This document shows positions 30,684 to 46,771 of a stretch of DNA of 64,000 nucleotides, one piece after another; the first letter of the stretch is position 1, and each line of letters begins with the position of its first letter. The position numbers were made by a program, and so were the translations under genes. The stretch lies in the NCBI GenBank assembly GCA_040753875.1, contig JBFMDV010000005.1, forward strand, positions 305,142 through 369,141, read 5' to 3'. This DNA is from Candidatus Zixiibacteriota bacterium (lineage in GTDB: Bacteria > Zixibacteria > MSB-5A5 > GN15 > FEB-12). Under the pieces are notes generated by a model. It was not told the DNA's origin, did no database searches, and worked only from the letters and a program-made list of their open reading frames with translations.

Positions 30684-30755
30684 ACGCACATCCTTACCCG
30701 AATCAGGTCCACGATTTTTTCTGGCGGGAATCTATGGTAAAGCCTGCTGACGAGC

Positions 30756-30822: not shown

Positions 30823-31170
30823 CTACATGGTGAAGAGTCGTTCCCCTCGGATGATCTTCTCCAAAATGCGCACCGTCTTCTCAACCGGCGAGTGCATGAT
30901 GTCGGTCGTGTTGTAGGTGCTTCGCACGACCTCGCGTGATGCGGACATGCCGGCCTTCCCGCGACCACCCCGGAGTTTTTTCTTGTGGGTCAGGTTGTAC
31001 TGACGCTGGTACTCCTTGGCCTTTTCCTTGTGCATCTGGTAATACCGACGCTGATACTCCCGTCGCGCTTCCGCAGTGGACAGTTTCGAGGTTGTGCTTG
31101 TTGGCTGGGCTGCCCTGTCGGCCGTCTCGGTGCTGGTGATGGCGGGAGATCGTTTCTCCATCCGAGCCAT
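30823..31170 (-). CDS. small basic hypothetical protein (115 aa), apparently monocistronic
   Basis: The ORF has its own candidate promoter (31255-31283) and terminator (30756-30800). It has a Lys/Arg/Tyr/Gln-rich centre, EARREYQRRYYQMHKEKAKEYQRQYNLTHKKK. I recognise no family. Confidence 0.5.
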   Translation of the reverse strand: MARMEKRSPAITSTETADRAAQPTSTTSKLSTAEARREYQRRYYQMHKEKAKEYQRQYNLTHKKKLRGGRGKAGMSASREVVRSTYNTTDIMHSPVEKTVRILEKIIRGERLFTM

Positions 31171-31525: not shown

Positions 31526-31570
31526 AACAAAAAATCCCGCCGAAATCGCTTCGGCGGGATTGTTTTTGTT
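31526..31570 (-). terminator. bidirectional rho-independent terminator ending the 12-gene array
   Basis: 11-bp perfect stem ATCCCGCCGAA (31534-31544) / TTCGGCGGGAT (31550-31560). It is flanked by an A-run (31529-31534, a T-run on the minus strand) and by TGTTTTTGTT. Confidence 0.85.
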
Positions 31571-31582: not shown

Positions 31583-32386
31583 TTACGCCGCGGGTGATTC
31601 GCGTCTCTTCAAATGTTGCACGATCTCCCAAGCGATATACGCGATCAGCATCACGACGATCAGCCAGAAGATCAAGGGGAACCATATCGAATGGTTGGGG
31701 TTGGCGTCATCAAAGGCGGTCTTCAGCCAGCTCCGGTTAAGGAACTGCACGCGCTCGATGAAGAGCGAGATACGCGCCATGACGGTATAGCCGAACGATG
31801 CCCCGAACCCGATCATCAGGATCCAGATTCCGAACTTGGCGAGCACGCCGAAAGCGCCGGTGTGCGCTTTGGAAAAGAAGAAGTAGGACAGTGCGGCCAG
31901 CGCTCCGACCAGAACGATGAGCTGCGACAACGCTGATGTCGGGTCAAACAAACCGGAACCAATGAATGTCTCCCACGAGATGTTCGACATCATCGCGTAC
32001 AACTGCTTGTTCACGCGGTTGGACATCTCGAGCGGGACCGCCAGACCGGCGGATATCCCGATATAGAGCGCCATCGGCCAGCGTGACATCCATGAGTACT
32101 TCTTCGAAAAGCGGGTCCACATCAGTGCGCCCAGGAAACCCGGAATGAGGTACCAAGGAGCCGAGGAGTCCAACCACACCTTGTACCAGTGACCGTCGGA
32201 CAGTTTCGCGAACAGGTTCGGGTAGAGGCTGTTGTGCCAGAGCAGAATGGAGAAGTACCCGGTAGCGGTACCGACCATGAGATGTTCGGCAAATTTGTAG
32301 AACGGATTGTCCTTATACAGGAAGCTGAATATCGCCAGCGTCAGAAACGCGGCCAAGCTTGTCCAGAGATACGTTTCAAAGTCCAT
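31583..32386 (-). CDS. module 1 component A: polytopic membrane protein, uncharacterised family
   Basis: 267 aa, MDFETYLWTSLAAFLTLAIFSFLYKDNPFYKFAEHLMVG...FFFSKAHTG...IGFGASFGYTVMARISL. It is a paralog of 35231-36064 and 38935-39594 and has an extra C-terminal TM segment. Confidence 0.85.
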   Translation of the reverse strand: MDFETYLWTSLAAFLTLAIFSFLYKDNPFYKFAEHLMVGTATGYFSILLWHNSLYPNLFAKLSDGHWYKVWLDSSAPWYLIPGFLGALMWTRFSKKYSWMSRWPMALYIGISAGLAVPLEMSNRVNKQLYAMMSNISWETFIGSGLFDPTSALSQLIVLVGALAALSYFFFSKAHTGAFGVLAKFGIWILMIGFGASFGYTVMARISLFIERVQFLNRSWLKTAFDDANPNHSIWFPLIFWLIVVMLIAYIAWEIVQHLKRRESPAA

Positions 32387-32388
32387 GC

Positions 32389-33264
32389 CTACCTGCCTTC
32401 CGTCGCGCGACGGCGCCGGGACGTGAAGTACCCGACGTTGCCTACGACTATGAACGCAATGATCACGATGTGCGCGAAGACCTGAATGCGCATACCATCG
32501 GTTGCGGGACCGGGGTTGTCGGCGAGTTGCTCATATTGCGCCGCTCCGAGAAGCCCCCCCATGAGGCCGAATATCTGACCGGAATTCAGGTACGGGTAGT
32601 AGTCGGCCGCCATGACGCCGGTGGTGCCGAGCGCCAGCGGGAAGTTGAAGCGCCCCTGACCATACGAGACCCAGGCGTCAGTAATGTTGCCACCGGAAAG
32701 ATCGATCACACAGGCTACTTGCTTGTAGTTGATGACGCCATTCATGATCGGCAGAGAGTCCAGCGGTCGACCATAGTAGTCGATCGGGAACGGCAACCGG
32801 AAATTCTGCCCCATCCCAAGAATCTGCAATATGAAGTACGGTTTGTATCCCAGGAACACATAGTCGACGCCGTTGACGAGTTCTCGCCCCTTATACGCCA
32901 CACCGTGGTATGTTTGGTCAAGCTTCATGGAATCCGTGATGTCGTGAATCGCCGCATCCACCATTCCGGAGCCGTACTGCGACAGCGTGCAGAAGATGAT
33001 CCGCAGGTCCTTGCGGAAGCAGTGCTCCATGATAGCGTATGCCATCGGATGCAACTCAGCCTGCATGGAGGGATCGTAGTCGATGCCGAGATACACGATC
33101 TGGCCGGGTTGGAGCTTGCCGACGAATTCGTATATGCTGCGGACCTCGCTGTTGATCCGGATCGGGATTTGAAACGAGACAGCATAGGTACCGACCACGA
33201 CGACAGCCAATAGGAGGAACACCCAGCGGCGGTCGATCGCCATCATCTTTTCGAAGATAGTCAT
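32389..33264 (-). CDS. module 1 component B: bitopic protein with a large domain held between N- and C-terminal TM anchors
   Basis: 291 aa. AAGGAGG precedes the ATG at 33264. Motifs are DYDPSMQAELHPMA, GYKPY, GAAQYEQL and AHIVIIAFIVVGNVGYF, then a basic tail. Paralog of 36067-37005 and 39599-40612. Confidence 0.85.
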   Translation of the reverse strand: MTIFEKMMAIDRRWVFLLLAVVVVGTYAVSFQIPIRINSEVRSIYEFVGKLQPGQIVYLGIDYDPSMQAELHPMAYAIMEHCFRKDLRIIFCTLSQYGSGMVDAAIHDITDSMKLDQTYHGVAYKGRELVNGVDYVFLGYKPYFILQILGMGQNFRLPFPIDYYGRPLDSLPIMNGVINYKQVACVIDLSGGNITDAWVSYGQGRFNFPLALGTTGVMAADYYPYLNSGQIFGLMGGLLGAAQYEQLADNPGPATDGMRIQVFAHIVIIAFIVVGNVGYFTSRRRRATEGR

Positions 33265-33276: not shown

Positions 33277-33936
33277 TTATCCTTTCCCCATGTAGCTTCG
33301 TTCGATACCCAAAATCACTTTCAGGGCCGTGGCCACCATGCCCAGGCCAATGCCGATCACGATGGCGCGCTTGGCAGCCAGGTTGGGGACATTGAGCAGC
33401 CAGTTGGCGGCGTTGCTGACATAATCACCGAGCGGTCCGAGATAGGGATTGAAGCGAAGCATCAGGATGAGCGCCGCCGCCAGCAGCAGCGTCGCCAGCA
33501 CATTGCGGGCGCGAAAGGCGCGATACGCTGCCGACGCAATGAAGAACGCCAGCAGGGAGAAAATGGTCGACTGGATCGGCCGTATGACATACTCGTATGC
33601 ATGACGGTACATGTAACTCTGGAGTCCTTCCGTCGTGCTGAAATGCAGCCCCCAGCTCCCGTCCACTTTGGCGAGGAAGCCGAAGCAGATGGTCGCAAAC
33701 AGACTTATGAGCAGCACGACCGAGTAGCCGCGGTCCGGCTTGTGCTGCCGCAGTTTGTCGTAGTTCACTCTGAACAAAGACCAGATGCCGAGCACCAGCG
33801 CAAAAACGCCAATGATGGTGATCCAGTCGAGCAGGTACTCGTAGATCCACTCCGACGATTCATGCGGGACGAAATACTGAAACACCATGAAGAGTCCGAA
33901 CACCAGGACCAACAGTATGGGAATCTGTCGCTTCAT
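33277..33936 (-). CDS. module 1 component C: polytopic membrane protein, uncharacterised family
   Basis: 219 aa. GAGGAGGA precedes the ATG at 33936. Motifs are YRAFRARN, PNLAAKRAIVIGIGLG and LGIERSYMGKG. Paralog of 37010-37687 and 40618-41265. Confidence 0.85.
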   Translation of the reverse strand: MKRQIPILLVLVFGLFMVFQYFVPHESSEWIYEYLLDWITIIGVFALVLGIWSLFRVNYDKLRQHKPDRGYSVVLLISLFATICFGFLAKVDGSWGLHFSTTEGLQSYMYRHAYEYVIRPIQSTIFSLLAFFIASAAYRAFRARNVLATLLLAAALILMLRFNPYLGPLGDYVSNAANWLLNVPNLAAKRAIVIGIGLGMVATALKVILGIERSYMGKG

Positions 33937-33952: not shown

Positions 33953-35197
33953 TCAATTGGCCACTTTGAAGAGCTCTTTGAAGCTCATGCCCCAGGAAAC
34001 ATCGGAAAACGCCGCGACATTCAGCGCTACAGCCCCGATCAGCGCGAGAATGATCACCGCCGCCTTTGCATAATCCTGTGCCTTCAGTGACCCCAGCAAC
34101 AGTGGTTCGCGTCCGAGGTAGGCCGAAGCGGCATAGAGCTCTTCGCCGATCAGCGTGTAATCACAGGCAACAACGAAAAACGGGATCTGGGCGACTTCAT
34201 CGGTGCCGGCGATCTGTATGGAGCCGGCCAGGGCACCGGTCTCGGCCAGAATCAGTGATTCCGCAAAGAACTTACCCATATACACGTTGGTTGCCGGCAA
34301 TTGCCTGAGCATGATACCATTGACAGCGCCGACATAACCGAACTGCGAGTTGGTCAGAAAGTAGACCATCTCCTCGCGGTAGTCATCGACTCGTCCGGCG
34401 TCCATATACGCCGATTTCACCGTCTCCTGAGCAACCGTCATCACAATCGGGTCATAGCAGGGGACGATCAAGTGGGTCTGGTATTCGGCAACCCGCTTGG
34501 CCACTCTGCCGAGGATGGTGAATGAGGCGATGGTCGCTATTTCGGCGGCGGTGCCGAGTCCAAGCACATACAGAATCGGCTTCCCCATTTCCGTCGCGCG
34601 CCCGATAGCTTCGTCGATAGCCTCTATTCCGCTCAACGGCCTCACGTACAGGTCACCACCCTTCTTGGCTTTGGTGACGAAAAAGACGGTGAGGAACCCG
34701 AAGAACAGCACTGCCACCAGCACCGGCACTCGCCCTTTGTTGAACCATTGCCCATACGACTGCACCGGTCCAAAGACTGGTGACAAGGACCTGATGGTTG
34801 AATCAGGTGTGACGGCATCGACACGGTAATAATAGTCCGTGTGGTCGGCCATGTAGTCGGGTGATTCCGCTTCTTTCGAACCGACATTGTTGTAGGTTTT
34901 CTGTCCGGGCAGTGCCGCCCCTACTTTTGTGAACTCGCCGCCGGGAGAAGTGGCACGGAGCACGTCGTAGGCGATGACGTTGCGGAGTCCGGCGCCGTCG
35001 TCCGGCGACAAATCCCATGAGAGCGTGATCGCGTGCCCGTGGTCGTTATCGAGGTCAATAGCCCGAAGATTAGAGACTGGCGCCGGAGGAGCTAGCGGCA
35101 GCGCCATATCCGGCGGTTGAATCGTGTCGATCTGCGCCACGGCCCCCGCAGTCGCCAACAGACACACCGTAAGAACTGTTCTCAGCAGAGATTGCAT
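33953..35197 (-). CDS. module 1 component D: signal peptide + Fn3-like ectodomain + TM + conserved ~240-aa core + C-terminal TM
   Basis: 414 aa. GGAGGA precedes the ATG at 35197. It has a signal peptide (MQSLLRTVLTVCLLATAGAVAQ) and ITLSWDLSPDD...YYYRVDAV. Core motifs are GIEAIDEAIGRATEMG, FAESLILAETG, IQIAGT and PFFVVACDYTLIGEELYAASAYL. Confidence 0.85.
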   Translation of the reverse strand: MQSLLRTVLTVCLLATAGAVAQIDTIQPPDMALPLAPPAPVSNLRAIDLDNDHGHAITLSWDLSPDDGAGLRNVIAYDVLRATSPGGEFTKVGAALPGQKTYNNVGSKEAESPDYMADHTDYYYRVDAVTPDSTIRSLSPVFGPVQSYGQWFNKGRVPVLVAVLFFGFLTVFFVTKAKKGGDLYVRPLSGIEAIDEAIGRATEMGKPILYVLGLGTAAEIATIASFTILGRVAKRVAEYQTHLIVPCYDPIVMTVAQETVKSAYMDAGRVDDYREEMVYFLTNSQFGYVGAVNGIMLRQLPATNVYMGKFFAESLILAETGALAGSIQIAGTDEVAQIPFFVVACDYTLIGEELYAASAYLGREPLLLGSLKAQDYAKAAVIILALIGAVALNVAAFSDVSWGMSFKELFKVAN

Positions 35198-35230
35198 ACA
35201 TCCTCCGCGAGGCTTCTTGTATCACTCATA

Positions 35231-36064
35231 TCATTGCTTGATCAATCCCAACCAGTCGCTGAACAGGAACGTCAACCGGCCCACGAGAAGCGAGACACGC
35301 CCCATCACCGTATAGCCGAACGACGCACCGAATGTCACCATCAGCACCCAGATCCCGAAGCGCGACGCGCGCCCCGTGAGTCCCGTGTGCTCCTTTGAAA
35401 AGAAGAAATATATCAATCCGCACACGACGCCAAGAAAAATCACCCAGTTGGCCAGCATGACGACGAACTGCCCGGCGATATTGAGGTTAAAGTCGGAAAT
35501 AAAACTCCCGATCCCCCGCCATTCGACCAGGAGTGGCACGAAGGTGGACGATATCTGCTCGATGAAATCGGAACGCATGTAGCGCACGAAATTCAGTCCG
35601 GCGGTGGTACCAACGATGAAGGCCAGCGACCATCTCGAGATCCACCCCAGTTTCGATGACAGCCTCATGAGCAGGAGCAGGCCGAATATGACCGGAATGA
35701 AAAACACCCAGTTGATCGGAAATGGCCCGACATACTCGCTCGGGATATACGGCACTTTGAAAGACGCCGACAGTGACGAGGAAATGCGAGGGATCAGGTT
35801 CCCGACGATGGTGGACCAGAACCCCATGCACATCCAGAACGCGGCGGATATCCCGACAAACAGGTGCTCGGCGAATTTATAGAACGGATTGTCGGCATAG
35901 AGGAATGACAGGACCGCCAGGGTCAGAAAGGCCGAGATGGTCACCAGGAATCCGCGCAGGATGTAGTCCTCCTGAACGCCGTTATATGCCGACGCCTTGG
36001 CGAACCAACTGACGGCAAACAGAACGACTACCGCAAAAAGAACAATGATGGTGGAACGTCTCAC
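35231..36064 (-). CDS. module 2 component A (with extra N-terminal TM segment)
   Basis: The GTG start at 36064 lies 2 nt after the B2 stop (TGAccGTG). The sequence (V)RRSTIIVLFAVVVLFAVSWF...FLTLAVLSFLYADNPFYKFAEHLFVG...FFFSKEHTG...TFGASFGYTVMGRVSL follows. The 377-aa track ORF was trimmed because its 5' part overlaps B2. Confidence 0.8.
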   Translation of the reverse strand: MRRSTIIVLFAVVVLFAVSWFAKASAYNGVQEDYILRGFLVTISAFLTLAVLSFLYADNPFYKFAEHLFVGISAAFWMCMGFWSTIVGNLIPRISSSLSASFKVPYIPSEYVGPFPINWVFFIPVIFGLLLLMRLSSKLGWISRWSLAFIVGTTAGLNFVRYMRSDFIEQISSTFVPLLVEWRGIGSFISDFNLNIAGQFVVMLANWVIFLGVVCGLIYFFFSKEHTGLTGRASRFGIWVLMVTFGASFGYTVMGRVSLLVGRLTFLFSDWLGLIKQ

Positions 36065-36066
36065 GG

Positions 36067-37005
36067 TCAGACCGGCTCCTTTTTGCGGGAGCGGAAGTAG
36101 GTGATGTTGCCGATGATTATGAATGCCATAATAACCAGGTGCGCCAGTGTCTGGGGGCCCATCATACGAAGCCCCGGAGCCGGCGTATCGGCAAACTGCG
36201 GATATCGGTTCACCAGTTCGTGCTCGTATTCGGCCGCCCCCTTGATGCCGCCGAGAATACCGAGAATTTGCCTGGGGTAATACGGATACAACAACGGTGC
36301 GGTCACCGCCGCCACGCCCGAGGCGATCGGTACGTTGCCGGGATCGCCGACAAACAGCACCCACTCTTTCGCGCCGGGATAACCACCGCCGGTCGTGAGG
36401 ACAAGGTCAAAATCCTTGCAGGACCTGACGCCGTCAAAGATCGGCAGGCTGTCGAGCGGCACGGTGTTAACATCGGTGGGGAACATCTTGCGGATATCGG
36501 TCACGATGACATTGAGCACGCCCTCGTTGCCCGCCTTGTACCCAATCACGGCGTAGTCGACGCCATTCACTTTCTGCGAAAATTCCCGCCGGACAACGCG
36601 GTCGAGGGAGGTGGTCATGAGCGCCTGACCGGTCGCCCAGAGCGACATGAACACGACACGATGCCCTTTGCTCAAGCAGTGGCGCATGTATGCATCAGCC
36701 ATCGGTTGAACTTCGGGGGCCATGGCCGGGTCAAAATCGAACGACATGAGCACGCGCGACCCCGGCGGCAATGATTCGATCTTGTCGAACACCGCCTTGA
36801 CGGTAGGTGTCATGCGCTCCTTGAACGTGATGGGAAAGAGCACCGGCAGGGAGACGGCCACAAATACAAACGCGAAGATAAGCCTTCGGGGAACTTCCCT
36901 GCCTTTGACCGAACGGATGGTAAGCCAGACCAGTCCACCGCCGATCGCCGCCAGGGTGAGCGCCACGCCGATATCGCTGAAGCTGATGGCCATGATGCCG
37001 AACAT
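36067..37005 (-). CDS. module 2 component B
   Basis: The ATG at 37005 lies 4 nt after the C2 stop. MFGIMAISF... has two N-terminal TM segments. Motifs are FDFDPAMAPEVQPMA, GYKAGNE, KEWVLF, GAAEYEHEL and AHLVIMAFIIIGNITYF. Confidence 0.85.
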   Translation of the reverse strand: MFGIMAISFSDIGVALTLAAIGGGLVWLTIRSVKGREVPRRLIFAFVFVAVSLPVLFPITFKERMTPTVKAVFDKIESLPPGSRVLMSFDFDPAMAPEVQPMADAYMRHCLSKGHRVVFMSLWATGQALMTTSLDRVVRREFSQKVNGVDYAVIGYKAGNEGVLNVIVTDIRKMFPTDVNTVPLDSLPIFDGVRSCKDFDLVLTTGGGYPGAKEWVLFVGDPGNVPIASGVAAVTAPLLYPYYPRQILGILGGIKGAAEYEHELVNRYPQFADTPAPGLRMMGPQTLAHLVIMAFIIIGNITYFRSRKKEPV

Positions 37006-37009
37006 GCGA

Positions 37010-37687
37010 TTACCCTTTGTCCTCGCCAAGATAAGTGCGCTCAATCCCAAGCAGCACGCGGAGCGACATCGACACCACACCAAGCCCGATACCGATCATA
37101 ATCGCCCGCTGCCCCGCCAGATTGGGGGAACTCATGATCCAGATCGCCATATTGGGGACCTGGAGGGCAGACAACGAGTCCGGGATCCAGGCCGTGATCA
37201 TCGTCCCGAACGGCGTGCGGCCAAGGAGGATCACAAAAGCAGCTATGAGAAGTATAGTCGCCTCACGGTTCTTGGCGCGAAAGGCGCGATACGACGCCGA
37301 CGCCACATAGAATGCCAGAAGTGCATACATAGTCGAGCTAAGTGGATTCATCACCCGTTCGAAGATTGTCTGAAACCACGAGCCGGAGGCGGTCACGGAT
37401 GCGGCGATCCCGCCCGCATTGCCGATCTTGAAAAGGCCGGAAGCGAGCACGAGGAAAAACCCAAAGAGGGTAACCAGCGAATAACCCCAGTCTTTCTTTC
37501 GACGGGACACCTTGTCCAGATGAATACGAACCAGGTTCCCGCCCCCAAGGAAAAACGCGAACACGGCAATGATATCAAAAAAGAGGGTGAAGTTCTCCCC
37601 CATCGACTGCACGGGCGGCAGGAAAACTGATACGATCAGGAGAGTACCGACGAAAAACGTGATGAAGAGCGGGACCGTTCGTTTCAT
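37010..37687 (-). CDS. module 2 component C
   Basis: 225 aa. The ATG at 37687 lies 3 nt after the D2 stop (TAAcgcATG). Motifs are YRAFRAKN, PNLAGQRAIMIGIGLG and LGIERTYLG. Confidence 0.85.
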   Translation of the reverse strand: MKRTVPLFITFFVGTLLIVSVFLPPVQSMGENFTLFFDIIAVFAFFLGGGNLVRIHLDKVSRRKKDWGYSLVTLFGFFLVLASGLFKIGNAGGIAASVTASGSWFQTIFERVMNPLSSTMYALLAFYVASASYRAFRAKNREATILLIAAFVILLGRTPFGTMITAWIPDSLSALQVPNMAIWIMSSPNLAGQRAIMIGIGLGVVSMSLRVLLGIERTYLGEDKG

Positions 37688-37690
37688 GCG

Positions 37691-38938
37691 TTACCGATTC
37701 GTCTGGAAAACCGAGGTGAGCGTGTTCAGAAGGTTGGTCATGAATTCGATATCGTAGGCCGCGCTCAGGGTGGCGGCAAGAGTCCCGATGAGTATCATCA
37801 ACAGCGCCAGCCCCTTGCCGATATCCTGGCCCTTCAGCGACCCGAGCTGCTTTGGCTCGCCGGAGAGATAGGCTGAGGCCGCGAATAACTCTTCGCCGAT
37901 GAGCGTGAAGTCGCACGCGGCGACAAAGAACGGCAACTGCGCCGGCATGGCGGTACCGGCGATCTGGATCGCTCCGACAGAATTGCCGGTCTCGGCTATG
38001 ATCAGAGACTCGGCAAAGAAAGCACCGAGATAGAAGCAGGTGGCCGGTTTCTCTCGTACCATGATACCGTCGACTGCCGCGACGTAGCCGAACTGCTCAT
38101 CGGTCACGTAGCGCACCATATCATCGTTGTAGGCATCGGGACGACCTGCCGCCATGTACGCAGTCTTGATTGTCTCGCGCGCGGCGGTCATTACCAGCGA
38201 CCGTGAGACCGGCATGTTGATCTTGGTGTCGTAATCAGCCACCACCCGCGCCACGCGGCCGAGGATAGTGATCCCCGCCACCGTCTGCACGTTATCCATA
38301 TCCTGAATGCCGGGGATAAACAGGATGGGGCGCCCCATTTCGGTGGCGCGACCGATTGCCTCATCGACGGCTTCAAGTCCGGCGATCTTACGAATAAACA
38401 GCTTTTTGCCGCGACGTGCGGTCTCGATGAAATAGATGACCGAACCGGCAATGATGAAGGCAATCAGGAAAAGATATTTCCTGTCAAAGTTGATCCATTC
38501 TCGTTCGGTGCGAAGAGGCGCGGTCCTGACCGAAAGTGCGGTGCCGGTCGGGGCGATAGTCTCAAGATAGTACACATAGGCACGGCCGAGTCGGACGGCG
38601 TTGTCCTGGTACCGATTCGTGCCGGCGGCAAACTCGGCCAGTTTGACCGGCGTGCTGTCATCGGTAATGCGGTATAGCCGGTAGCCGGTAACCGTCCCTT
38701 TCATAACCTGGTCATCTATGGAGGGGACCCAGGAGAGGTCGATGTGGTCGCCGTCATCGTACTTGTGGTCACTGGCGACGAGCGACGTAGCGGGGGCAGG
38801 AAGAATTGGTGCCGCGGTGTCTGGAATATCGGCCTGGGCGAAGGCTATGTTATTGGATGACGGGATCAGGACCAACGTGAGTAACAGACAGCATAGAGAG
38901 CAGACGTATGAACGAGAGATTGATGTGAGCGGTCTCAT
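37691..38938 (-). CDS. module 2 component D
   Basis: 415 aa. Its ATG overlaps the A3 stop (ATGA at 38935-38938). It has a signal peptide ending AFAQA and the Fn3-like IDLSWVPSIDD...YVYYLETIA. The core is almost colinear with D3. Confidence 0.85.
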   Translation of the reverse strand: MRPLTSISRSYVCSLCCLLLTLVLIPSSNNIAFAQADIPDTAAPILPAPATSLVASDHKYDDGDHIDLSWVPSIDDQVMKGTVTGYRLYRITDDSTPVKLAEFAAGTNRYQDNAVRLGRAYVYYLETIAPTGTALSVRTAPLRTEREWINFDRKYLFLIAFIIAGSVIYFIETARRGKKLFIRKIAGLEAVDEAIGRATEMGRPILFIPGIQDMDNVQTVAGITILGRVARVVADYDTKINMPVSRSLVMTAARETIKTAYMAAGRPDAYNDDMVRYVTDEQFGYVAAVDGIMVREKPATCFYLGAFFAESLIIAETGNSVGAIQIAGTAMPAQLPFFVAACDFTLIGEELFAASAYLSGEPKQLGSLKGQDIGKGLALLMILIGTLAATLSAAYDIEFMTNLLNTLTSVFQTNR

Positions 38939-39594
38939 TTGATAAGCCCCAACCAGTCTCCAAGCAGGAAATCGATGCGGCCTATCAAAAGCGACATACG
39001 GCTCATGACCGTGTAGCCGAACGACGCGCCAAATGTTACCATGAGGACGAATATACCAACTTTGGCCGCACCACCAAAGGCTCCTTTATGCTCTTTGGAA
39101 AAAAAGAAATAGATCAGGGCGGTGAAAGTCCCGACCGCCACCACCACATTACCGATCACGTCATAGAGCGACGCCCCTCCATCAGCGCCCAACAGCGGAC
39201 GGACGGTGTCGGCGACCTGCACCATCACGTTCGATGCAAAGTAGCCGATGAGATTAAGTCCGGCCGTGGCACCAACGATGAAGGCCAGCGGCCAACGCGA
39301 TAACCAGCCGATTTTGGGAATTAGCCGCATCAGCATCAAGAGCCCCAGCGCGCCGCCGACAAGCAGCGCGTAATCTGGAGATCGCGAGGGGTCTCCGGGA
39401 AACACGCCCACCCAGAACTTGCCGTAGATATTATCCCAGAAATAGGTGACGAACCAGTATCCGGCCGATGCCCCCACGAACACGGCCTCGCAGATTTTGT
39501 ACCACACATTGTCCCGATACAAAAACGAGATGATCCCGAGCGTGAGAAACGCCGCCGTCCACAGCGCGAGATGATCCATGATGCCGGTGTTCAT
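38935..39594 (-). CDS. module 3 component A (minimal form)
   Basis: The ATG at 39594 lies 4 nt after the B3 stop; the start could also be MDHLALW at 39579. FLTLGIISFLYRDNVWYKICEAVFVG...FFFSKEHKG...TFGASFGYTVMSRMSL is present. The track ORF start at 39756 was trimmed. Confidence 0.8.
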   Translation of the reverse strand: MNTGIMDHLALWTAAFLTLGIISFLYRDNVWYKICEAVFVGASAGYWFVTYFWDNIYGKFWVGVFPGDPSRSPDYALLVGGALGLLMLMRLIPKIGWLSRWPLAFIVGATAGLNLIGYFASNVMVQVADTVRPLLGADGGASLYDVIGNVVVAVGTFTALIYFFFSKEHKGAFGGAAKVGIFVLMVTFGASFGYTVMSRMSLLIGRIDFLLGDWLGLIK

Positions 39595-39598
39595 ACCG

Positions 39599-40612
39599 TC
39601 ACAGGCTCCGTTTCCCCTTACGTCGTTCGTGCATGAAGTAGGCCACGTTGCCGATGACAATGAATGCGACGACCACCAAGTGCGAAAACGATTGCGACAG
39701 CATGAACTTGGTTCCCTTGGCCAGCGTGCCGGTGAGCTGCTCGAACTCCGCCGCACCGTTCATGCCGCCCAGTATCCCCAGCAACTGGCCCGAGCGAACG
39801 TAGGGATACATGCCGGTTGTCTGAACGGCTGTGTTCCCGGCACCCATCTTGAGCCCATAGCGATCCACGGCAAACAGCACCCATTCTTTCGTGCCCGGGT
39901 ATCCGGCGGAAAGATTGAATGAATAATCGACGTTGGCATAGTTCCGCACGTTGCGCACCAGCGGCAGACTGTCATACGGCGTGCCCTGGTAATCGGCTGG
40001 AAACATCGACTTGAAATCCGATCCCAGCCGCTGAATGACGAATTCGTTGCCGGATTGGAATCCCAGGTTGACGTAGTCGACACCGTAGACCGGAAGCTTG
40101 GCACGTATGTCAGGTTCATCGAGTATCTTCGTCAACGCGAGATTTGCCTGTTGCGGTCCCTGCGGCCAGAGACCAAAGATGATCATTTTGAAATCGTGCG
40201 CGAAACCATAACGCAAGAACGACTCGGCCATTGGCTGCAGCTCGGCAGCCGAAGGGGGATCGTAGTCGAAAGTCACGAGTACTTTGGAACCTGGCGGGAC
40301 TTTCTGCAGATAATCATACAACATCTGAGCTTCCGATGAGATCGCCACTTTCTGGGTCAATGACATGAACAGCGGCATGGCCACGGCGATCCCCACATAC
40401 AGGAACACCACTCGCCGCTCGGCGAATTTCCCCCGTATAGTCAAAATGAGAATCCATACAATTGACAAGCCAAGCATAATCGACACAAGCAGCGATACAG
40501 CCGGTGAGAACGACACTGAACCAAACCAGCCGGCATGCCGCCCGACATACCAGATGGCGCACAGTGCGACTACAAGGATTATCAGAAGAAGACGAAACAT
40601 GCTGCGGCTCAT
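39599..40612 (-). CDS. module 3 component B (three N-terminal TM segments)
   Basis: The ATG at 40612 lies 5 nt after the C3 stop; TTG at 40621 is an alternative. Motifs are FDYDPPSAAELQPMA, GFQSGNE, KEWVLF, GAAEFEQL and SHLVVVAFIVIGNVAYF. Confidence 0.85.
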   Translation of the reverse strand: MSRSMFRLLLIILVVALCAIWYVGRHAGWFGSVSFSPAVSLLVSIMLGLSIVWILILTIRGKFAERRVVFLYVGIAVAMPLFMSLTQKVAISSEAQMLYDYLQKVPPGSKVLVTFDYDPPSAAELQPMAESFLRYGFAHDFKMIIFGLWPQGPQQANLALTKILDEPDIRAKLPVYGVDYVNLGFQSGNEFVIQRLGSDFKSMFPADYQGTPYDSLPLVRNVRNYANVDYSFNLSAGYPGTKEWVLFAVDRYGLKMGAGNTAVQTTGMYPYVRSGQLLGILGGMNGAAEFEQLTGTLAKGTKFMLSQSFSHLVVVAFIVIGNVAYFMHERRKGKRSL

Positions 40613-40617
40613 GCCAA

Positions 40618-41265
40618 TCAATCCCCTCCCAGGTGTGAGCGTTCAATGCCGAGGATAATCCGAAGCGAGGCGGAGACAGTCCCGAGTGCCACGCCGATCA
40701 TGATCGCCCGCTGGCCGGCCGTGTTGGGGAAGTTCATGATCCAGGTCGCCAGGTCAGACAAACGCCAGTGCTCCGGCAGGAATCCGGTGGCGACATCACC
40801 AACCGGAACCCGTCCCACCATCACCAGAAACGCGGCCACCAAGAGGAGTGTCGCATCGAGGTTGCGAGCGCGAAACGCCCGGTACGATGCTGAAGCCACG
40901 AAAAACGCCAGGATGGCATACATGGTAGATGAGAGCGGAGAATACACATAATTGTAGATCCAGTCGGACCAGGTGCCCGGATTGCGGAAATCCCGGCCTT
41001 CGGCGAAACCGACCACCGCAACAATCAGGAAGCAGACCACGATGATGACCGCGTAGCCCCATTCCCCTCTGCGGGAGAAGATCTTTTGCAGGGATGTCTT
41101 GAAGAGATTAAGTGCCCCCAGCCAGATCGCGCATGCGGCCACTATAGAAAACCAATCCGACTGCCAGTTGCTTACTTTGGAAAACGGGACATGCGGGATG
41201 AAATACTGCACCACCATCACAACCCCGACAATCGCGGTAATGATGAGCGGTACTTCGCGACGCAT
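40618..41265 (-). CDS. module 3 component C
   Basis: The ATG at 41265 shares one base with the D3 stop (TAATG, 41263-41267). MRREVPLIITAIVGVVMVVQYF..., YRAFRARN, PNTAGQRAIMIGVALG and LGIERSHLG are present. The track ORF start at 41457 was trimmed. Confidence 0.85.
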   Translation of the reverse strand: MRREVPLIITAIVGVVMVVQYFIPHVPFSKVSNWQSDWFSIVAACAIWLGALNLFKTSLQKIFSRRGEWGYAVIIVVCFLIVAVVGFAEGRDFRNPGTWSDWIYNYVYSPLSSTMYAILAFFVASASYRAFRARNLDATLLLVAAFLVMVGRVPVGDVATGFLPEHWRLSDLATWIMNFPNTAGQRAIMIGVALGTVSASLRIILGIERSHLGGD

Positions 41266-42512
41266 TACTCGATCACCTGAAACAACCTGGCGGCGTTGGC
41301 GAGATGCAGGGTCTCGAGCAGAATGCCGATCACGATGGCGGCCAGGATTACGCCCTTGCCGATATCCTGTCCCTTGAGTGAACCAAGCTGCCGCGGCTCT
41401 TTGGACAAGTAGGCAGATGCGGCGAACAACTCTTCGCCGATCAACGTGTAGTCGCACGCCGCGACGAAGAACGGCAACTGCGATGGCTCTGAGGTTCCGG
41501 CAATCTGAATCGCGCCGACCGAGTTACCGGTCTCTGCCAGAATCAACGACTCGGCATAGAACATCCCCATCATGAAGATGGCGGCCGGTTTCTCGCGAAC
41601 GACCAGACCATCGATCGCCGCAGCGTAACCGAACTGGTCGTCAGTCAAATATGTTACCTGATCTTCACGGAAGGAATCGGGGCGTCCCGACCGGACATAT
41701 GCCTCTTTCACGACTTCGCGGCAGGTAACCATCACAAGCGAGCGAGCCACCGGCACATCGAGTCGAGTCTCGTACTGCGCCGCTTTCTCGGCGACACGAC
41801 CGAGGATCGTAATACCGGCCAATGTGGCTACCTGGTCCATATCCTGTGAGCCGGGGATGTAGTAGACTTTGCGCCCCATTTCAGTGGCGCGGCCAACTGC
41901 TTCATCAACCGCCTCGAGCCCGGCGATCTTGCGAATGAAAAACGTCTTTCCGGCCTGGGCCAGCATGATGTAAAGGATAATGAAACCGCAAAGCATAACT
42001 GTCCCGACAAAGACATTGATGCGCCGCCAGTCGAACCACTGAGCCGTCGCCTTGACCGGGCCGACCGGCGCTGATTCCAACATCCAGACCTTGCCGAGCG
42101 TAGCAGCGGAAGAATCGCTGATTGTCCGCACTGTGTAGAAGTACTCTTTTCCTTCCACCACCTGCCCATCCTGGTACTTAGTGGTTCCGGCTGGCAGCAT
42201 GGCGAGACCAGTAATTAAACCCGGCGCACCATTGACACTTTCGGCTCGAGCAATAGAGTAAGCCTTCACCAATCCCTCAGCGTGGTCATCCGGCGAAAGC
42301 TCCCAGGTTATGTCGATCGACTCGCCCCCGTCGTTCGGAGTATCCTTGACCACAACGTGACTGGCCGGTCGGATTGGTGTTGTAGTTATAGAATCAAGAG
42401 AATCAGCGGCAGCGAGTGTTGGATCTGGTCCCGCGAGCGTGGCGAGCGCAACCATACCAGTTAACAGGCTGAAGTGGGGAAAAGAAACAAACAGAGAAGG
42501 CAAGTTAGTCAT
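41265..42512 (-). CDS. module 3 component D (first gene of the array)
   Basis: I chose the start at ATG 42512 (MTNLPSLFVSFPHFSLLTGMVALATLAG) by analogy with the D1 and D2 signal peptides. In-frame ATGs at 42584 and 42605 cannot be excluded. It has the Fn3-like IDITWELSPDD...YFYTVRTIS and the same core motifs as D2. Confidence 0.8.
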   Translation of the reverse strand: MTNLPSLFVSFPHFSLLTGMVALATLAGPDPTLAAADSLDSITTTPIRPASHVVVKDTPNDGGESIDITWELSPDDHAEGLVKAYSIARAESVNGAPGLITGLAMLPAGTTKYQDGQVVEGKEYFYTVRTISDSSAATLGKVWMLESAPVGPVKATAQWFDWRRINVFVGTVMLCGFIILYIMLAQAGKTFFIRKIAGLEAVDEAVGRATEMGRKVYYIPGSQDMDQVATLAGITILGRVAEKAAQYETRLDVPVARSLVMVTCREVVKEAYVRSGRPDSFREDQVTYLTDDQFGYAAAIDGLVVREKPAAIFMMGMFYAESLILAETGNSVGAIQIAGTSEPSQLPFFVAACDYTLIGEELFAASAYLSKEPRQLGSLKGQDIGKGVILAAIVIGILLETLHLANAARLFQVIE

Positions 42513-42665: not shown

Positions 42666-42694
42666 AATCTATCGGCGGCCACTGCTCAAGTCAA
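42666..42694 (-). promoter_or_regulatory. candidate sigma70-type promoter of the 12-gene array
   Basis: Minus strand reads TTGACT (rc of 42689-42694), 17 nt, TAGATT (rc of 42666-42671). Confidence 0.45.
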
Positions 42695-42982: not shown

Positions 42983-44839
42983 ATGGCCAAGTTTGCGAGT
43001 CCCGAGGAAATCAAAGTCATTGTTGCGACCGATTGCGGTTCGACCACCACGAAAGCAATTCTCATAGAATACCTCAACGGCGAATACCGCCTGCTCTCGC
43101 GAGGCGAGGCACCGACGACAGTCGAAGCTCCATTTGAAGATGTCACCATGGGAGTACTTAATGCGGTCGCGGAGTTGGAGGAGCTCTCGGGCAGGAAGTT
43201 GCTTGACGATCAGGGACGGTTCATCACGCCGGCAAATGGAAAAGAGGGAACCGACGTTTACATATCCACATCGTCGGCAGGGGGTGGGCTACAGATGATG
43301 GTGGCAGGCGTGGTGCGTTCTATGACGGCCGAGTCGGCTGAACGGGCGGCACTTGGCGCAGGGGCCATCGTGATGGACGTGATCGCATCGAACGACAAGC
43401 GGCTGCCGCACCAGCAAATCGAGCGGATACGGCATCTACGACCGGACATGATTCTCTTGTCGGGCGGAATTGACGGCGGTACAACTACGCACGTGGTAGA
43501 GATCGCTGAACTTGTTTCTGCGGCCGACCCGCGTCCCAGACTCGGCTCTGGCTACAAACTGCCGGTCATCTATGCGGGTAATAAAGATGCAACCGAGCCG
43601 GTCAAGGAAGCGCTGTCAGACAAAGTTGATCTGAAAGTGGTCCCGAACCTCCGCCCGGTCCTGGAGCGCGAAAACCTTGGTCCGGCCCGTGAAGAGATCC
43701 ATGAACTGTTTATGGAACACGTCATGGCCCAGGCACCCGGCTATCGCAAGCTGATGTCCTGGACCGACGCGCCGATTATGCCGACTCCCGGTGCGGTGGG
43801 GCTCATTATACAGACCATTGCAGACATTTACAATATCGAAGCGGTTGGTGTCGATATCGGCGGCGCTACCACTGATGTCTTCTCAGTATTTCGTCCGGAC
43901 AGCAAGACGCCGGTATTCAACCGGACGGTCTCGGCCAACCTGGGCATGTCGTACTCTATCTCCAACGTGTTCGCCGAGGCTACGCTGCCGATGGTGATGC
44001 GGTGGGTGCCGTTTCCGATGGACGAGCGGGACCTTCGCAACCGCGTGAAGAACAAGATGATCCGACCGACCACTATCCCGCAATCGATGGAAGAGCTGAT
44101 CTTCGAGCAGGCGATTGCACGCGAAGCGCTTCGACTGGCGTTTATCCAGCACAAGAGTTTTGCGACAGTTTTGAAAGGGGTGCAACAGCAGCGAACGATC
44201 GCCGACGCTTTCGAGCAGTCATCATCGGGCGCCTCAATCGTCAATATGATGACCCTCAACATGCTGATCGGCTCGGGCGGCGTGCTTTCACACGCGCCGC
44301 GTCGGCAACAGTCGGCCCTGATGATGATCGATTCGTTCCTTCCCGAAGGAGTGACGCGCCTGGCGGTCGATTCCATCTTTATGATGCCGCAGCTCGGCGT
44401 GCTGACCGAGGTGCAGCCGAAAGCGGCTACCGAAGTATTCGAAAAAGACTGCCTGATTCATCTGGGGACCTGCATAGCGCCCTCCGGCACTACGAAAAAG
44501 CCGGGACCGGTGATGAAATACTGTATCGAGTTACCGGGCGGCACGGTCAACGGCACACTCAGTCATTTGGAAATGAAGCTATTCAAGCTTGGCTTGCAGT
44601 CGAACAGGCTGCCGCAAACCGTGAAGGCAACGTTCGAACCGGAACGGAACTACGATGTGGGCGGCGGCAAGGGTGTCAAGGTGGAGCGAGAACTGCATGG
44701 TGGGGTGGTCGGCGTCATCCTCGACGGCCGCGGTCGGCCGTTCGATTTGTCATCGCTGTCCGAGCAAGACCGCGTCACCTATCTGAAGAAGTGGATTCTG
44801 GAATTGAACATATATCCGGAAGGAGATTGGGGAAAATGA
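42983..44839 (+). CDS. GlmL/MutL-family ASKHA-fold ATPase-like protein (glutamate mutase accessory protein family), 618 aa
   Basis: The N-terminal phosphate-1-like motif VATDCGSTTTKAILIE fits the D.GST.TK pattern of the MutL/GlmL family as I recall it. A second motif, VGVDIGGATTDVFSV, is present. No B12 mutase subunits occur in the window. Confidence 0.6.
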   Translation: MAKFASPEEIKVIVATDCGSTTTKAILIEYLNGEYRLLSRGEAPTTVEAPFEDVTMGVLNAVAELEELSGRKLLDDQGRFITPANGKEGTDVYISTSSAGGGLQMMVAGVVRSMTAESAERAALGAGAIVMDVIASNDKRLPHQQIERIRHLRPDMILLSGGIDGGTTTHVVEIAELVSAADPRPRLGSGYKLPVIYAGNKDATEPVKEALSDKVDLKVVPNLRPVLERENLGPAREEIHELFMEHVMAQAPGYRKLMSWTDAPIMPTPGAVGLIIQTIADIYNIEAVGVDIGGATTDVFSVFRPDSKTPVFNRTVSANLGMSYSISNVFAEATLPMVMRWVPFPMDERDLRNRVKNKMIRPTTIPQSMEELIFEQAIAREALRLAFIQHKSFATVLKGVQQQRTIADAFEQSSSGASIVNMMTLNMLIGSGGVLSHAPRRQQSALMMIDSFLPEGVTRLAVDSIFMMPQLGVLTEVQPKAATEVFEKDCLIHLGTCIAPSGTTKKPGPVMKYCIELPGGTVNGTLSHLEMKLFKLGLQSNRLPQTVKATFEPERNYDVGGGKGVKVERELHGGVVGVILDGRGRPFDLSSLSEQDRVTYLKKWILELNIYPEGDWGK

Positions 44840-45630
44840 CGCGCCACCCCAGAGCTATCGTGACAATCTCGCTGCTTGTTGCAGCGGCACTATCAGCGGC
44901 TGCTTCCCCTTCCCAAGCAACCAACTTCGTCAGCCTGAACGGCAAGTTCTACATCTCTTATCCCGCCGATTGGAAGCAGGTCGATTTCCTGACCGTAGAT
45001 TATTTCCTGGCGCAGTCCAACGCGGGCCAGCAGACGTTTCAATACGAGGCCGTGTTCGCGCCGGCCGACCAGGTTCCGTTCAGCGATGGTCCGTATCTTA
45101 TTCTCACTGTCGACACGATCGGCAATCTGACCGATCGGCAGATTGACTCAGTGCTCGATGATCTGTCCAAAGGGTTCGGCGCGCCGATCAACCGCACAAC
45201 GAGCGGCGATCCGTTGACCGGGTTGACCGTGGCTGAACCGAGATATGACGCTTCCGCCCATCTTGTGACTATCCTTTCGGACATACGAGAGTTGAATCAG
45301 CCGCTTCGAAAAAGCCTGCTCGCGGTCAAGTTTTACCCCGGCGGTACGGCCAATTTCTATTTCTATGCGCCGGATTCTCTGTTCGCACGGGTCACTCCCG
45401 TGTTCAGGGACATTCTGGCGTCATTCTCGACGGAAAATATTCAAGCTGCCATGCCGAAAGAGGAATTGCGTCTGGCGGACTCCAAGAAAACGAGCGATAC
45501 CTCGGACGGCAGCTCGACGAAACGCCGAGGCCTGTTTGGTGGCGGCATTTTTGTTGTCATCATCCTGATCATCGTGATGGCTCGTCGCAGACGGAAACGC
45601 CGCGAAGCGGAGCAGAATCTCCAGCACTAA
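44836..45630 (+). CDS. hypothetical exported protein with C-terminal membrane anchor
   Basis: ATGA overlap with the upstream gene. It has a signal peptide (MTRHPRAIVTISLLVAAALSAAASPSQA), a C-terminal TM (LFGGGIFVVIILIIVMA) and a basic tail, RRRRKRRE. It corresponds to the 3' part of track ORF 44002-45630. Confidence 0.7.
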   Translation: MTRHPRAIVTISLLVAAALSAAASPSQATNFVSLNGKFYISYPADWKQVDFLTVDYFLAQSNAGQQTFQYEAVFAPADQVPFSDGPYLILTVDTIGNLTDRQIDSVLDDLSKGFGAPINRTTSGDPLTGLTVAEPRYDASAHLVTILSDIRELNQPLRKSLLAVKFYPGGTANFYFYAPDSLFARVTPVFRDILASFSTENIQAAMPKEELRLADSKKTSDTSDGSSTKRRGLFGGGIFVVIILIIVMARRRRKRREAEQNLQH

Positions 45631-45643
45631 GAGGAATACCCCC

Positions 45644-46771
45644 ATGGGTCATGCGTATACGCCGGGACTGAAAGTCACCGAGAAACTACTCGTCAAGAAG
45701 AACCGTATTCTCCCTCTCAAGGGAGAGGTGGTCGTCAAGACGGGCGACAGGGTCAAGCCGAGCGATGTGGTTGCCCGGACCCATCTGCCCGGCAATGTCG
45801 TGCCGCTGAACATTGCCAATAAGCTGGGTATCCCGCCGGAAGACATCGGTACCGTCATGATGAAGAAAGTCGGCGATGGAATCAAGAACGGCGAGGTGAT
45901 TGCTATCTCCAAGTCGTTGTTCGGCCTGTTCAAGAACGAATGTCAGGCCACGATCGACGGCACCATTGAATCGATCTCGCACGTAACCGGCCAGGTGCTC
46001 CTGCGCGGAGAGCCGACCCCGGTTGAAGTGAAAGCATATATCTCGGGCGAGGTGCTGGAGGTGATCCCGAAAGAGGGGGTGGTGGTGGCGTGCGTGGCCA
46101 GTTTCGTCCAGGGGATTTTCGGTATCGGCGGCGAGACGTTCGGCGCCTTGCAGGTGGTGGTCCCGGACCCGAATACCGTGCTCACCGAAAAACTCATCAC
46201 CGAAAGTCACAAGGGAAAGGTTATAGTCGGCGGCTCGCTGGTGACGGCCGATGGCCTCAAGAAGGCGATCGCCGTCGGCGTCCACGGCGTGGTGGTCGGT
46301 GGATTTGACGACAAGGACCTTCGCGATTTCCTCGGCTACGATATTGGCGTGGCGATCACCGGCTCGGAGGATATCGGCACCACGCTGGTGGTGACCGAAG
46401 GGTTCGGCCAGATCAACATGGCGCAGAAGACGTTCGATTTGCTGAAGAAGCACGAAGGAGAAATGGCCTGCATCAACGGGGCAACGCAAATCCGGGCCGG
46501 CGTGATCCGGCCGGAAGTCGTCATTCCGGCGGTTGCGGAGTCGAATATCAAAGCTGAGGCAGTGGCTGGGCAGACCGAGGGACTGAAAGTGGGATCCCCG
46601 ATTCGCGTCATCCGACATCCTCATTTCGGACGACTGGGCAAGGTGACCGACCTGCCGTCACCATTGACCGTCCTGGAATCCGAGTCCAAAGCGCGCATTC
46701 TCGAAGTGGAATTTGACGACGGTTCCCGTGCGGTTGTCCCGCGTGCCAATGTTGAGATGATTGAAGGCTGA
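45644..46771 (+). CDS. hypothetical cytoplasmic protein (N-terminal barrel-sandwich-hybrid-like segment, C-terminal KOW/SH3-like segment)
   Basis: 375 aa. The N-terminus LPLKGEVVVKTGDRVKPSDVVAR resembles lipoyl/hybrid-barrel folds. The C-terminus GSPIRVIRHPHFGRLGKVTDL is KOW-like. I recognise no family. Confidence 0.6.
   Translation: MGHAYTPGLKVTEKLLVKKNRILPLKGEVVVKTGDRVKPSDVVARTHLPGNVVPLNIANKLGIPPEDIGTVMMKKVGDGIKNGEVIAISKSLFGLFKNECQATIDGTIESISHVTGQVLLRGEPTPVEVKAYISGEVLEVIPKEGVVVACVASFVQGIFGIGGETFGALQVVVPDPNTVLTEKLITESHKGKVIVGGSLVTADGLKKAIAVGVHGVVVGGFDDKDLRDFLGYDIGVAITGSEDIGTTLVVTEGFGQINMAQKTFDLLKKHEGEMACINGATQIRAGVIRPEVVIPAVAESNIKAEAVAGQTEGLKVGSPIRVIRHPHFGRLGKVTDLPSPLTVLESESKARILEVEFDDGSRAVVPRANVEMIEG

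Follow-up and report, generated by a model that had tools for sequence, protein, structure and literature searches.

Results

Three D-A-B-C cassettes

We analyzed a 64,000-nucleotide stretch of the genome of Candidatus Zixiibacteriota bacterium (assembly GCA_040753875.1, contig JBFMDV010000005.1, positions 305,142 to 369,141 of the forward strand), here called the window and numbered from its first letter, with particular interest in three paralogous membrane proteins, D1, D2 and D3, which carry the Pfam domain DUF6754. Twelve minus-strand genes lie densely packed between about 42600 and 31583; they make up three tandem cassettes of four genes each, transcribed in the order D3-A3-B3-C3, D2-A2-B2-C2 and D1-A1-B1-C1. 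D is a subunit with two transmembrane (TM) helices, a periplasmic fibronectin type III (Fn3) domain and a cytoplasmic Rossmann-like DUF6754 domain, and its gene is the first of a conserved D-A-B-C unit. The span 33953-42512 is bounded by the D1 end and the presumed D3 start, so that two A-B-C sets also lie within it. Neighboring genes overlap or stand a few bases apart along the whole 12-gene unit; thus the ATG of A3 shares one base with the stop codon of D3, and the C3 stop and D2 start are fused as ATGA.

A three-way alignment gives the D proteins a common plan: a signal-like N-terminus, an Fn3 domain of ~100 aa, a TM helix (TM1), a core of ~200 aa that begins directly after TM1, and a C-terminal TM helix. 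In D2, the canonical paralog (37691-38938, minus strand, 415 aa; Pfam DUF6754 E 3e-124), these parts, delimited with AlphaFold2 (AF2) models, are the signal peptide (38831-38938), Fn3 (38513-38797), TM1 (38414-38485), the core (37859-38413), an amphipathic and TM helix (37754-37855) and a short outside tail (37694-37753). D2 is 100% identical to a "DUF6754 domain-containing protein" that NCBI holds from a Zixiibacteriota metagenome-assembled genome (MAG). D1, the most diverged paralog (33953-35197, minus strand, 414 aa; DUF6754 E 1.7e-112), is MEW6050019.1 at NCBI, where it is named "fibronectin type III domain-containing protein"; it consists of a signal peptide (35132-35197), an Fn3 domain with an insertion (~34760-35080), TM1 (34673-34729), the core (~34109-34663) and the C-terminal TM helix (34007-34063). 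The open reading frame (ORF) of D3, the first gene of cassette 3 (41265-42512, minus strand; DUF6754 E 1.2e-122), was divided by hydropathy and profiles into Fn3 (~42048-42377), TM1 (~41958-42014), core (~41400-41954) and C-terminal TM helix (~41301-41363). Its start is ambiguous, being either ATG 42512 (415 aa) or the longest-ORF ATG 42605 (446 aa).

Membrane topology

The distribution of positive charge was examined in 145 representatives of the DUF6754 family. Lysine plus arginine residues average 4.2 in the 12 residues after TM1 and 1.9 in those before it, in the expected direction in 93% of the proteins; the corresponding values are 1.9 before the C-terminal TM helix and 0.8 after it, in the expected direction in 82%. 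A signal-like N-terminal segment is present in 110 of the 120 representatives that have an ectodomain and start with methionine. The charge bias and the signal-like segments together place the Fn3 domain in the periplasm and the core in the cytoplasm, and the positive-inside rule thereby supports the outward-facing N-terminal domain proposed in the first-pass annotation of this DNA. The same annotation had given each D protein a signal peptide and a final TM segment. Hydropathy supports the latter throughout, as does the model for D2, while the signal-like segment is clear in D1 (MQSLLRTVLTVCLLATAGAVAQ) and D2 (...CCLLLTLVLIPSSNNIAFAQA) and weaker in D3, the protein whose start codon is ambiguous.

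The ectodomain is a divergent Fn3 domain

A first AF2 model of D2, built on 50 homologs, has seven strands at residues 51-135 with a predicted local distance difference test score (pLDDT) above 90. Nearly all of the top 50 Foldseek matches of this ectodomain in the PDB are Fn3 domains (titin, neogenin, DCC, myomesin), and single-domain Fn3 targets give a target-normalized template modeling score (TM-score) of 0.75-0.79, E about 1e-6 and a root mean square deviation of ~3 Å. As modeled, then, the D2 ectodomain is an Fn3 fold. Among sequence profiles, that of the D3-type orthologs matches titin Fn3 at E 2.6e-15, that of the whole family does so at E 3e-6, and close relatives of D carry PF00041; the D1-type profile has no PDB match. 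Since the D1-, D2- and D3-type ectodomains recognize each other at 42-76 bits, those of D1 and D3 can be assigned to Fn3 by homology, as a sequence-based prediction. None of the three copies is matched by Pfam fn3 (PF00041) itself at E 0.01 or better, so the D ectodomains are divergent Fn3 domains. The Fn3-like character suggested earlier is thus borne out for the D2 model, with a domain of ~95-110 aa and not the ~130 aa first proposed.

Conservation among paralogs and orthologs

Pairwise identity among the three paralogs is 31-35% in the ectodomain, 15-21% in TM1 (the least conserved segment of D), 55-72% in the core and 21-45% in the C-terminal TM region; the difference between ectodomain and core gives Fisher p = 2e-6, 1e-4 and 1e-9 for the three pairs. 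The poor conservation of the N-terminal region relative to the core, noted in the first-pass annotation, therefore stands, as does its remark that most positions are identical between the D2 and D3 cores (72%). To call the core almost invariant, as it did, is too strong for paralogs with 55-72% identity.

In eight genomes with three cassettes, the D proteins group by cassette position. Their cores are 80-83% identical when the position is the same and 58-70% when it differs, from which we conclude that the triplication is old. The ectodomain is 37-45% identical within and 26-34% between positions; being so low even among proteins of the same position, it must be evolving fast everywhere, with a modest type-specific signal. 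This signal can be read from profiles, since the profile of a paralog's own type matches its ectodomain at 106-159 bits and those of the other types do so at 42-76 bits, in keeping with the earlier suggestion of a paralog-specific ectodomain.

The window proteins were also compared with those of ten single-cassette loci from Planctomycetota and Acidobacteriota. Core identity to these orthologs is 74% for D2, 66% for D3 and 56% for D1, and the ectodomain is 38% identical where it can be aligned at all. The corresponding values are 64% for M and 51% for X (two neighboring proteins described below), 48% for A2, 46% for C2 and 40% for B2. The high value of the D2 core marks cassette 2 as the canonical copy and the D core as the most conserved element of the system.

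The DUF6754 core

Pfam DUF6754 (PF20539) matches D1, D2 and D3 with 375, 414 and 408 bits (cutoff 27) over profile positions 2-254 of 257; NCBIfam has no family for the core. The 50-sequence model was poor at residues 283-344. A second model, of D2 residues 145-415 with 100 more diverse homologs, reached pLDDT 82.7 and a predicted TM-score of 0.74, and consists of a TM helix, a six-strand alpha/beta Rossmann-like domain and, at the C-terminus, a long helix of which the second TM segment is part. The hydrophobic, acidic-rich stretch 300-360, where the 50-sequence model had pLDDT below 50, at first resembled membrane-embedded helices; the 100-sequence model instead gives confident buried strands and helices of a soluble domain. 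A Foldseek search of the PDB with the core found nothing below E 1e-3 (best E 6e-3); the best, weak likenesses are to methyltransferases, GT-B glycosyltransferases, dehydrogenases and a universal stress protein, at query TM-scores of ~0.3. Sequence searches found no PDB relative of the core.

Residues invariant in the family are, in D2 numbering, R183, R197, G210, T219, Q282, E310, E316, Q325, G328, C342, D343, E349, E350, D372 and K375. The loop after strand beta1 (minus strand; 34535-34558 in D1, 38284-38307 in D2 and 41825-41848 in D3) reads GLGTAA in D1-type proteins and G(I/S)QDMD in D2, D3 and the single-copy or canonical orthologs. A Walker A motif (GxxxxGK[ST]) is absent from all D proteins, and a GxGxx[GA] motif is found in D1 alone, the same GLGTAA; a P-loop or classical dinucleotide-binding Rossmann domain was rejected on these grounds. 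A DxDx[TV]-like motif stands shortly after strand beta1 in D2 and D3 (DMDNV, DMDQV) and is missing in the D1 type. We rejected a HAD-like phosphatase or a P-type ATPase P-domain, since this motif is set off from the strand and not kept in D1-type proteins, and no HAD protein is among the Foldseek matches.

Variation of the periplasmic head

Among 1.84 billion cluster representatives searched, 2468 DUF6754 clusters were found at E <= 1e-3 and 844 at E <= 1e-30, and 150 representatives were studied for architecture. DUF6754 is always C-terminal, preceded by a region of 1-751 aa (median 241). D-type Fn3 domains, in one to five copies, are detectable in 53 of the 150, whereas heads of 400-600 aa are mostly something else: where examined, the non-Fn3 heads were beta-propellers of the PQQ/BamB type or had no Pfam match. 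Some members lack any ectodomain and keep the same DUF6754 core. As the head varies on a constant core across the representatives, head exchange is a property of the whole family and not only of these paralogs. Fusions of D to A, B or C (Rosetta-stone proteins) were not found among the 150. A few representatives (P0123, P0152 and P0218) have an extra domain of 140-230 aa past the C-terminal TM helix, which, should the predicted topology hold, would form another module in the periplasm.

The cassette across genomes

A genome scan with the D alignment found at least 600 loci, of which 79 from at least 10 phylum-level groups were retained; these include Zixibacteria, Planctomycetota (MAGs of Gimesia and Singulisphaera), Acidobacteriota, Gemmatimonadota, Eisenbacteria, Marinimicrobia, WOR-3, Coatesbacteria and Stahlbacteria. 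With hidden Markov models of the window A, B and C proteins, the order D-A-B-C was recovered in nearly every one of the 79 loci with room for it. Most phyla have one copy of the cassette, Zixibacteria-type MAGs two or three. The genes for M and X precede it on one strand, as M-X-D-A-B-C, in about 20 of the 79. A metagenome scan started from X gave X-D-A-B-C in 20 of the 41 loci with enough downstream sequence and five further divergent arrangements like that of the window; the remaining M-X pairs lie among housekeeping genes. Apart from M, X and a gene of ~133 aa, the recurrent neighbors are only lineage-specific or housekeeping genes. This ~133-aa gene, which has no Pfam match, often precedes M (L037:2424-2819, L042:2577-2981, L120:5715-6089 and others), and while some of these loci have D-A-B-C (Planctomycetota, Acidobacteriota), others do not; the window M is not preceded by it.

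Several loci depart from the simple arrangement. In two planctomycete loci (L026:4182-6011 and L078:2934-4742) A has ~600 aa instead of ~215, with a large extra region that has no Pfam domain. A Coatesbacteria locus (L071, CP070633.1) has D-A-B-C, then M, then an inverted C-B-A set without D, and the Zixibacteria locus L001 (CP070674.1) starts with an A-B-C set without D. The locus L007 reads D-A-B-C, D-A-B-C and then D-D-A-B-B-C, probably through split or duplicated genes.

Partner proteins

The A proteins (all minus strand, like B and C) are polytopic, A3 (40618-41265) having ~215 aa, 5-6 TM helices and the motif SASYRAFRA(R/K)N; A2 (37010-37687) has 225 aa and A1 (33277-33936) 219 aa. B3 (39599-40621) has N-terminal TM helices, a predicted periplasmic domain of ~220 aa, a C-terminal TM helix and a basic tail; B2 (36067-37005, ATG at 37005) has 312 aa and B1 (32389-33264) 291 aa. 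C3 (38935-39594; 219 aa) is polytopic, with the motifs FFFSKEH and FGASFGYTVM, and an identical hypothetical protein is held by NCBI. C2 (35231-36064; 277 aa) starts at GTG 36064, with AGGAG 11 nt upstream, and C1 (31583-32386; 267 aa) has an extra C-terminal TM helix. In general A and C have 5-6 TM helices each, and B is predicted to be a mirror image of D, with its ~220-aa domain in the periplasm between TM helices and its basic tail in the cytoplasm. A, B and C could not be placed in any Pfam or NCBIfam family, and searches found no PDB sequence relative of B or X. By hhalign there is no homology between the D core and the B periplasmic domain, or between A and C, save for a resemblance of TM helices. 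A Wzy-like repeat-unit polymerase was considered for A, as TIGR04370 hits A2 at E 3e-5; it was rejected because only 3 of 38 orthologs match and the hit is compositional. Homology of the membrane subunits to Rnf/Nqr was likewise dropped, with no matches for A, B, C or D at E up to 10, and PADLOC, which would identify a defense system, has no matches for D, A, B, C, M, X or Y.

M (42983-44839, plus strand; 618 aa) is a GlmL/MutL-like ASKHA ATPase encoded divergently from the D operon. Pfam MutL (PF13941) matches residues 13-490 at 431 bits (cutoff 27), and the ASKHA phosphate motifs DCGSTT and DIGGAT are intact. NCBIfam models give 234 bits (GlmL cutoff 475) and 174 bits (family-model cutoff 204), and these scores below the cutoffs make M a distinct branch. 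The flanking genes scanned around M contained no gene for a B12 mutase. X (45644-46771, plus strand; 375 aa) is soluble, with an N-terminal barrel-sandwich hybrid and a KOW-like C-terminus. The window X and Y proteins belong to no Pfam or NCBIfam family; among 22 X orthologs, Biotin_lipoyl is matched by 19, RnfC_N by 10 (best E 1.4e-6), NQRA_N by 7 and KOW by 6. Y (44836-45630, plus strand; ~264 aa) begins with a signal peptide, is anchored by a TM helix at its C-terminus, and lies between M and X only in window-like Zixibacteria. The window locus has three D-A-B-C cassettes with a single M and a single X. In the window and close relatives M-Y-X is divergent from the D operon; in other phyla X lies directly upstream of D. 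M-Y-X (42983-46771) runs in the same direction into a Tol-Pal cluster (47262-50401, plus strand; TolQ 47262-47972, TolB 48956-50401), and the succession M-Y-X, TolQ, TolR and a TolA-like gene recurs in three metagenome loci (L086, L087 and L098).

Transcription signals and other features of the window

An intrinsic terminator (31533-31561, minus strand; a 13-bp stem with 7 G-C pairs and a T run) lies 22 nt past the C1 stop codon; it is the sole strong one in the 12-gene unit and likely marks the end of transcription. Upstream of D3, a sigma-70-like promoter match, TTGACT-17-TAGATT (42666-42694, minus strand), is a match to consensus only, in a region where promoter-like sites are no more numerous than in shuffled sequence. 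Rfam searches found no riboswitch or leader RNA upstream of the operon and no riboswitch in the window.

Downstream of the last cassette lie a 115-aa ORF without a family match (30823-31170, minus strand) and then pyruvate phosphate dikinase (27888-30689, minus strand); both are also found downstream of the cassettes in L001. Four overlapping long ORFs on the plus strand, three of them antisense to real genes (32359-33213, 36139-36774 and 36722-37630) and one the out-of-frame 5' part of the ORF ending in Y (44002-44835), have Arg/Gly/Pro-rich translations and are most likely artifacts of the 56% G+C content. A bacterial large signal recognition particle RNA (55991-56256, minus strand, 152 bits) and a tRNA gene (56417-56489, minus strand) are unrelated to the D system.

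Discussion

In the model that we favor, with moderate confidence as a whole, D would be the signature coupling subunit of a conserved inner-membrane complex, joining a constrained core to an evolvable periplasmic adaptor. D-A-B-C would encode this complex, and the Zixibacteria genome studied here would hold three tandem versions of it. The N-terminus of D would be exported, displaying one Fn3 domain in the periplasm; the chain would then cross the membrane, place DUF6754 (~200 aa) in the cytoplasm and re-enter the membrane by its C-terminal helix. The cytoplasmic domain may be the constrained working or docking part, either binding a ligand or metal through its conserved acidic residues or docking the cytoplasmic X and M, the latter being the sole recognizable ATPase of the system. 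The periplasmic head, in turn, could be an exchangeable adaptor or spacer, tuned in each lineage or paralog to a different envelope partner or substrate. If the three paralogous complexes share one M-X pair, this would explain why they diverge least in the cytoplasmic core. It is also possible, although we would stop short of calling it probable, that D-A-B-C with M and X represents a previously undescribed class of envelope-spanning machine, in which DUF6754 is a new catalytic or coupling module and the head is swapped to suit envelope targets; this reading covers Planctomycetota, Acidobacteriota, Gemmatimonadota and many candidate phyla related to the Fibrobacteres-Chlorobi-Bacteroidetes (FCB) group.

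Several observations weigh against the coupling-subunit model. The structural models are of single chains only. M and X are not adjacent to D-A-B-C in roughly half of the loci with enough flank, and the occurrence of lone M-X pairs beside housekeeping genes means that their link to D-A-B-C may be looser than a dedicated partnership. The single M and X were counted in the 64-kb window only, and other M-X copies may lie elsewhere in the genome. High conservation of the core is explained equally well by catalysis, and an ectodomain identity of 37-45% among positional orthologs fits a weakly constrained spacer as well as it does a tuned adaptor. Finally, the beta1-loop differs between the paralogs, which hints, judged from sequence, that the D cores are functionally non-equivalent.

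Three other explanations have to be considered. The beta1-loop occupies the usual phosphate-binding position, and its change to GLGTAA in D1 could mean that the paralogs bind different ligands. This would suit a solute or ion transporter in which A and C form the pathway, B supplies a periplasmic binding or gating domain, and D plays an accessory or regulatory part, its cytoplasmic Rossmann-like domain sensing a nucleotide or metabolite in the way that channels use RCK/KTN or universal stress protein domains, with Fn3 merely positioning the complex. In its favor, two of the subunits have 5-6 TM helices and a third has a periplasmic domain, three paralogous sets resemble transporter families of differing specificity, and the weak likenesses of the core include 5ahw, a universal stress protein that binds cAMP (target TM-score 0.45), along with other Rossmann folds that bind nucleotides. 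However, none of these Foldseek matches is significant (best E 6e-3, query TM-score ~0.3), no transporter family of Pfam or NCBIfam is matched by A, B or C at E up to 10, no Rfam riboswitch is found in the window or upstream of the operon, and one would not look for the strongest conservation of all components (74% across phyla) in a regulatory subunit; we consider a transporter of this kind unlikely. The same weak Foldseek list, headed by class-I methyltransferases and GT-B glycosyltransferases such as OtsA, can also be taken to mean that the core is itself catalytic, for instance as a Rossmann domain like those of glycosyl-, methyl- or phosphotransferases, acting on a membrane or envelope substrate passed by A, B and C. 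The system would then be an envelope-biogenesis machine, its Fn3 or propeller heads contacting the periplasmic product or outer layers. Fn3 and beta-propeller ectodomains are common on bacterial envelope enzymes, and envelope genes are neighbors in Zixibacteria (Tol-Pal in the window, PorV and a TonB-dependent receptor in L001). For a domain without a known function the core is very highly conserved, with E310, E316, C342, D343, E349 and E350 invariant, and D2, D3 and the canonical orthologs carry the DxDx[TV]-like DMD(N/Q)V after strand beta1. That motif is not kept in D1-type paralogs, though, and neither structure nor sequence searches gave the core a significant match among enzyme families; nor are there recurring sugar or lipid metabolism genes beside the cassette, while the weak glycan-polymerase match of A (TIGR04370) is confined to 3 of 38 orthologs. 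An enzymatic core thus seems doubtful to us.

The first-pass annotation had itself proposed a common engine carrying paralog-specific recognition domains. Taken literally, this would be an energy-converting core (a stator-like device or nucleoside triphosphatase (NTPase) motor) shared by three machines, with the Fn3 domains as recognition heads. The core is indeed the most conserved element of the system, type-specific ectodomain signatures are kept among orthologs, and the ectodomain is modular across the family. The label of engine is nevertheless unsupported, since the core has no known NTPase motif (Walker A is missing), no stator features and no significant fold match, and the one ATPase recognizable nearby is M, encoded alongside. 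The core is modeled as a soluble alpha/beta domain and not as a channel; D matches neither MotA/ExbB nor a related Pfam family, and TM1, with its 15-21% identity, has no invariant charged residue, unlike MotB, ExbD and TolR. As for recognition, the ectodomain evolves fast among orthologs too (37-45% identity, against 80-83% for the core). An engine of this sort appears very improbable. An ion-driven stator of the MotAB, ExbBD, TolQR or GldLM type was rejected for the four subunits together, as D, A, B and C have no such Pfam match and TM1 has no invariant residue; the true TolQ is encoded elsewhere in the window.

The architecture of D alone is already catalogued, through Pfam DUF6754 and the Fn3 name given by NCBI. 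Within the searchable library of papers, none names DUF6754, PF20539 or PF13941, or joins Zixibacteria with Fn3. What is uncatalogued is the context, a four-gene membrane cassette marked by D in which three of the four proteins (A, B and C) are without a family. Hundreds of genomes, spread over at least ten phylum-level groups, carry this cassette, which is often joined to M and X. The multi-gene system matches no characterized system tested; its apparent novelty as a system rests on negative searches and a fold search of incomplete coverage. For a domain of unknown function, a core identity of 74% between Zixibacteria and Planctomycetota or Acidobacteriota is unusually high, implying an important role. 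As MAGs assigned to genera with cultured members (Gimesia, Singulisphaera) contain the system, experiments on it may be feasible. The naturally occurring series of heads on one core (none, Fn3, multiple Fn3, propeller, and three paralogs in one operon) provides ready variants for probing the role of the head.

Comparison with known systems

The D proteins share features with several known systems. GldM, of the GldLM motor for gliding and type 9 secretion, is an inner-membrane anchor with periplasmic beta-sandwich domains and polytopic partners in FCB-related phyla, and other inner-membrane subunits likewise extend Ig-like domains into the periplasm; by description D resembles GldM in its own inner-membrane anchor, periplasmic beta-sandwich and polytopic partners. 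However, GldM crosses the membrane once and lacks a Rossmann domain in the cytoplasm, the D TM helix is without conserved charged residues, and no sequence relationship between the two was detected. For Na+-NQR and Rnf, the likeness lies in X, whose N-terminal barrel-sandwich resembles RnfC_N and NqrA_N, and in the layout, where a soluble protein comes first and is followed by several small polytopic proteins and a membrane protein that has a periplasmic domain; X differs in having no invariant cysteine, and the barrel-sandwich hybrid is a widespread module.

The modeled D2 ectodomain has the seven-strand sandwich of the Fn3 domains of titin, neogenin and DCC and of the Fn3-like domain 3mpc of C. 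thermocellum, with ~105 residues superposed. The Trp and Tyr landmarks of Fn3 domains are kept in D, although its identity to solved Fn3 domains is only 15-19% and D1 carries an insertion. Within Pfam, D1, D2 and D3 are full-length members of DUF6754, a family in which many proteins bear the NCBI name "fibronectin type III domain-containing protein", and their order of signal peptide, Fn3, TM helix, DUF6754 and TM helix is the commonest architecture of the family; the annotation leaves out both the triplication of D and its D-A-B-C and M-X context. M, finally, resembles the GlmL/MutL, EutA and DdrA-type ASKHA "reactivase" ATPases in its match to Pfam MutL and in both ASKHA phosphate-binding motifs, and is set apart by its scores below the GlmL cutoffs, by an extra C-terminal region of 130 aa and by its conserved neighbors, X and D-A-B-C.

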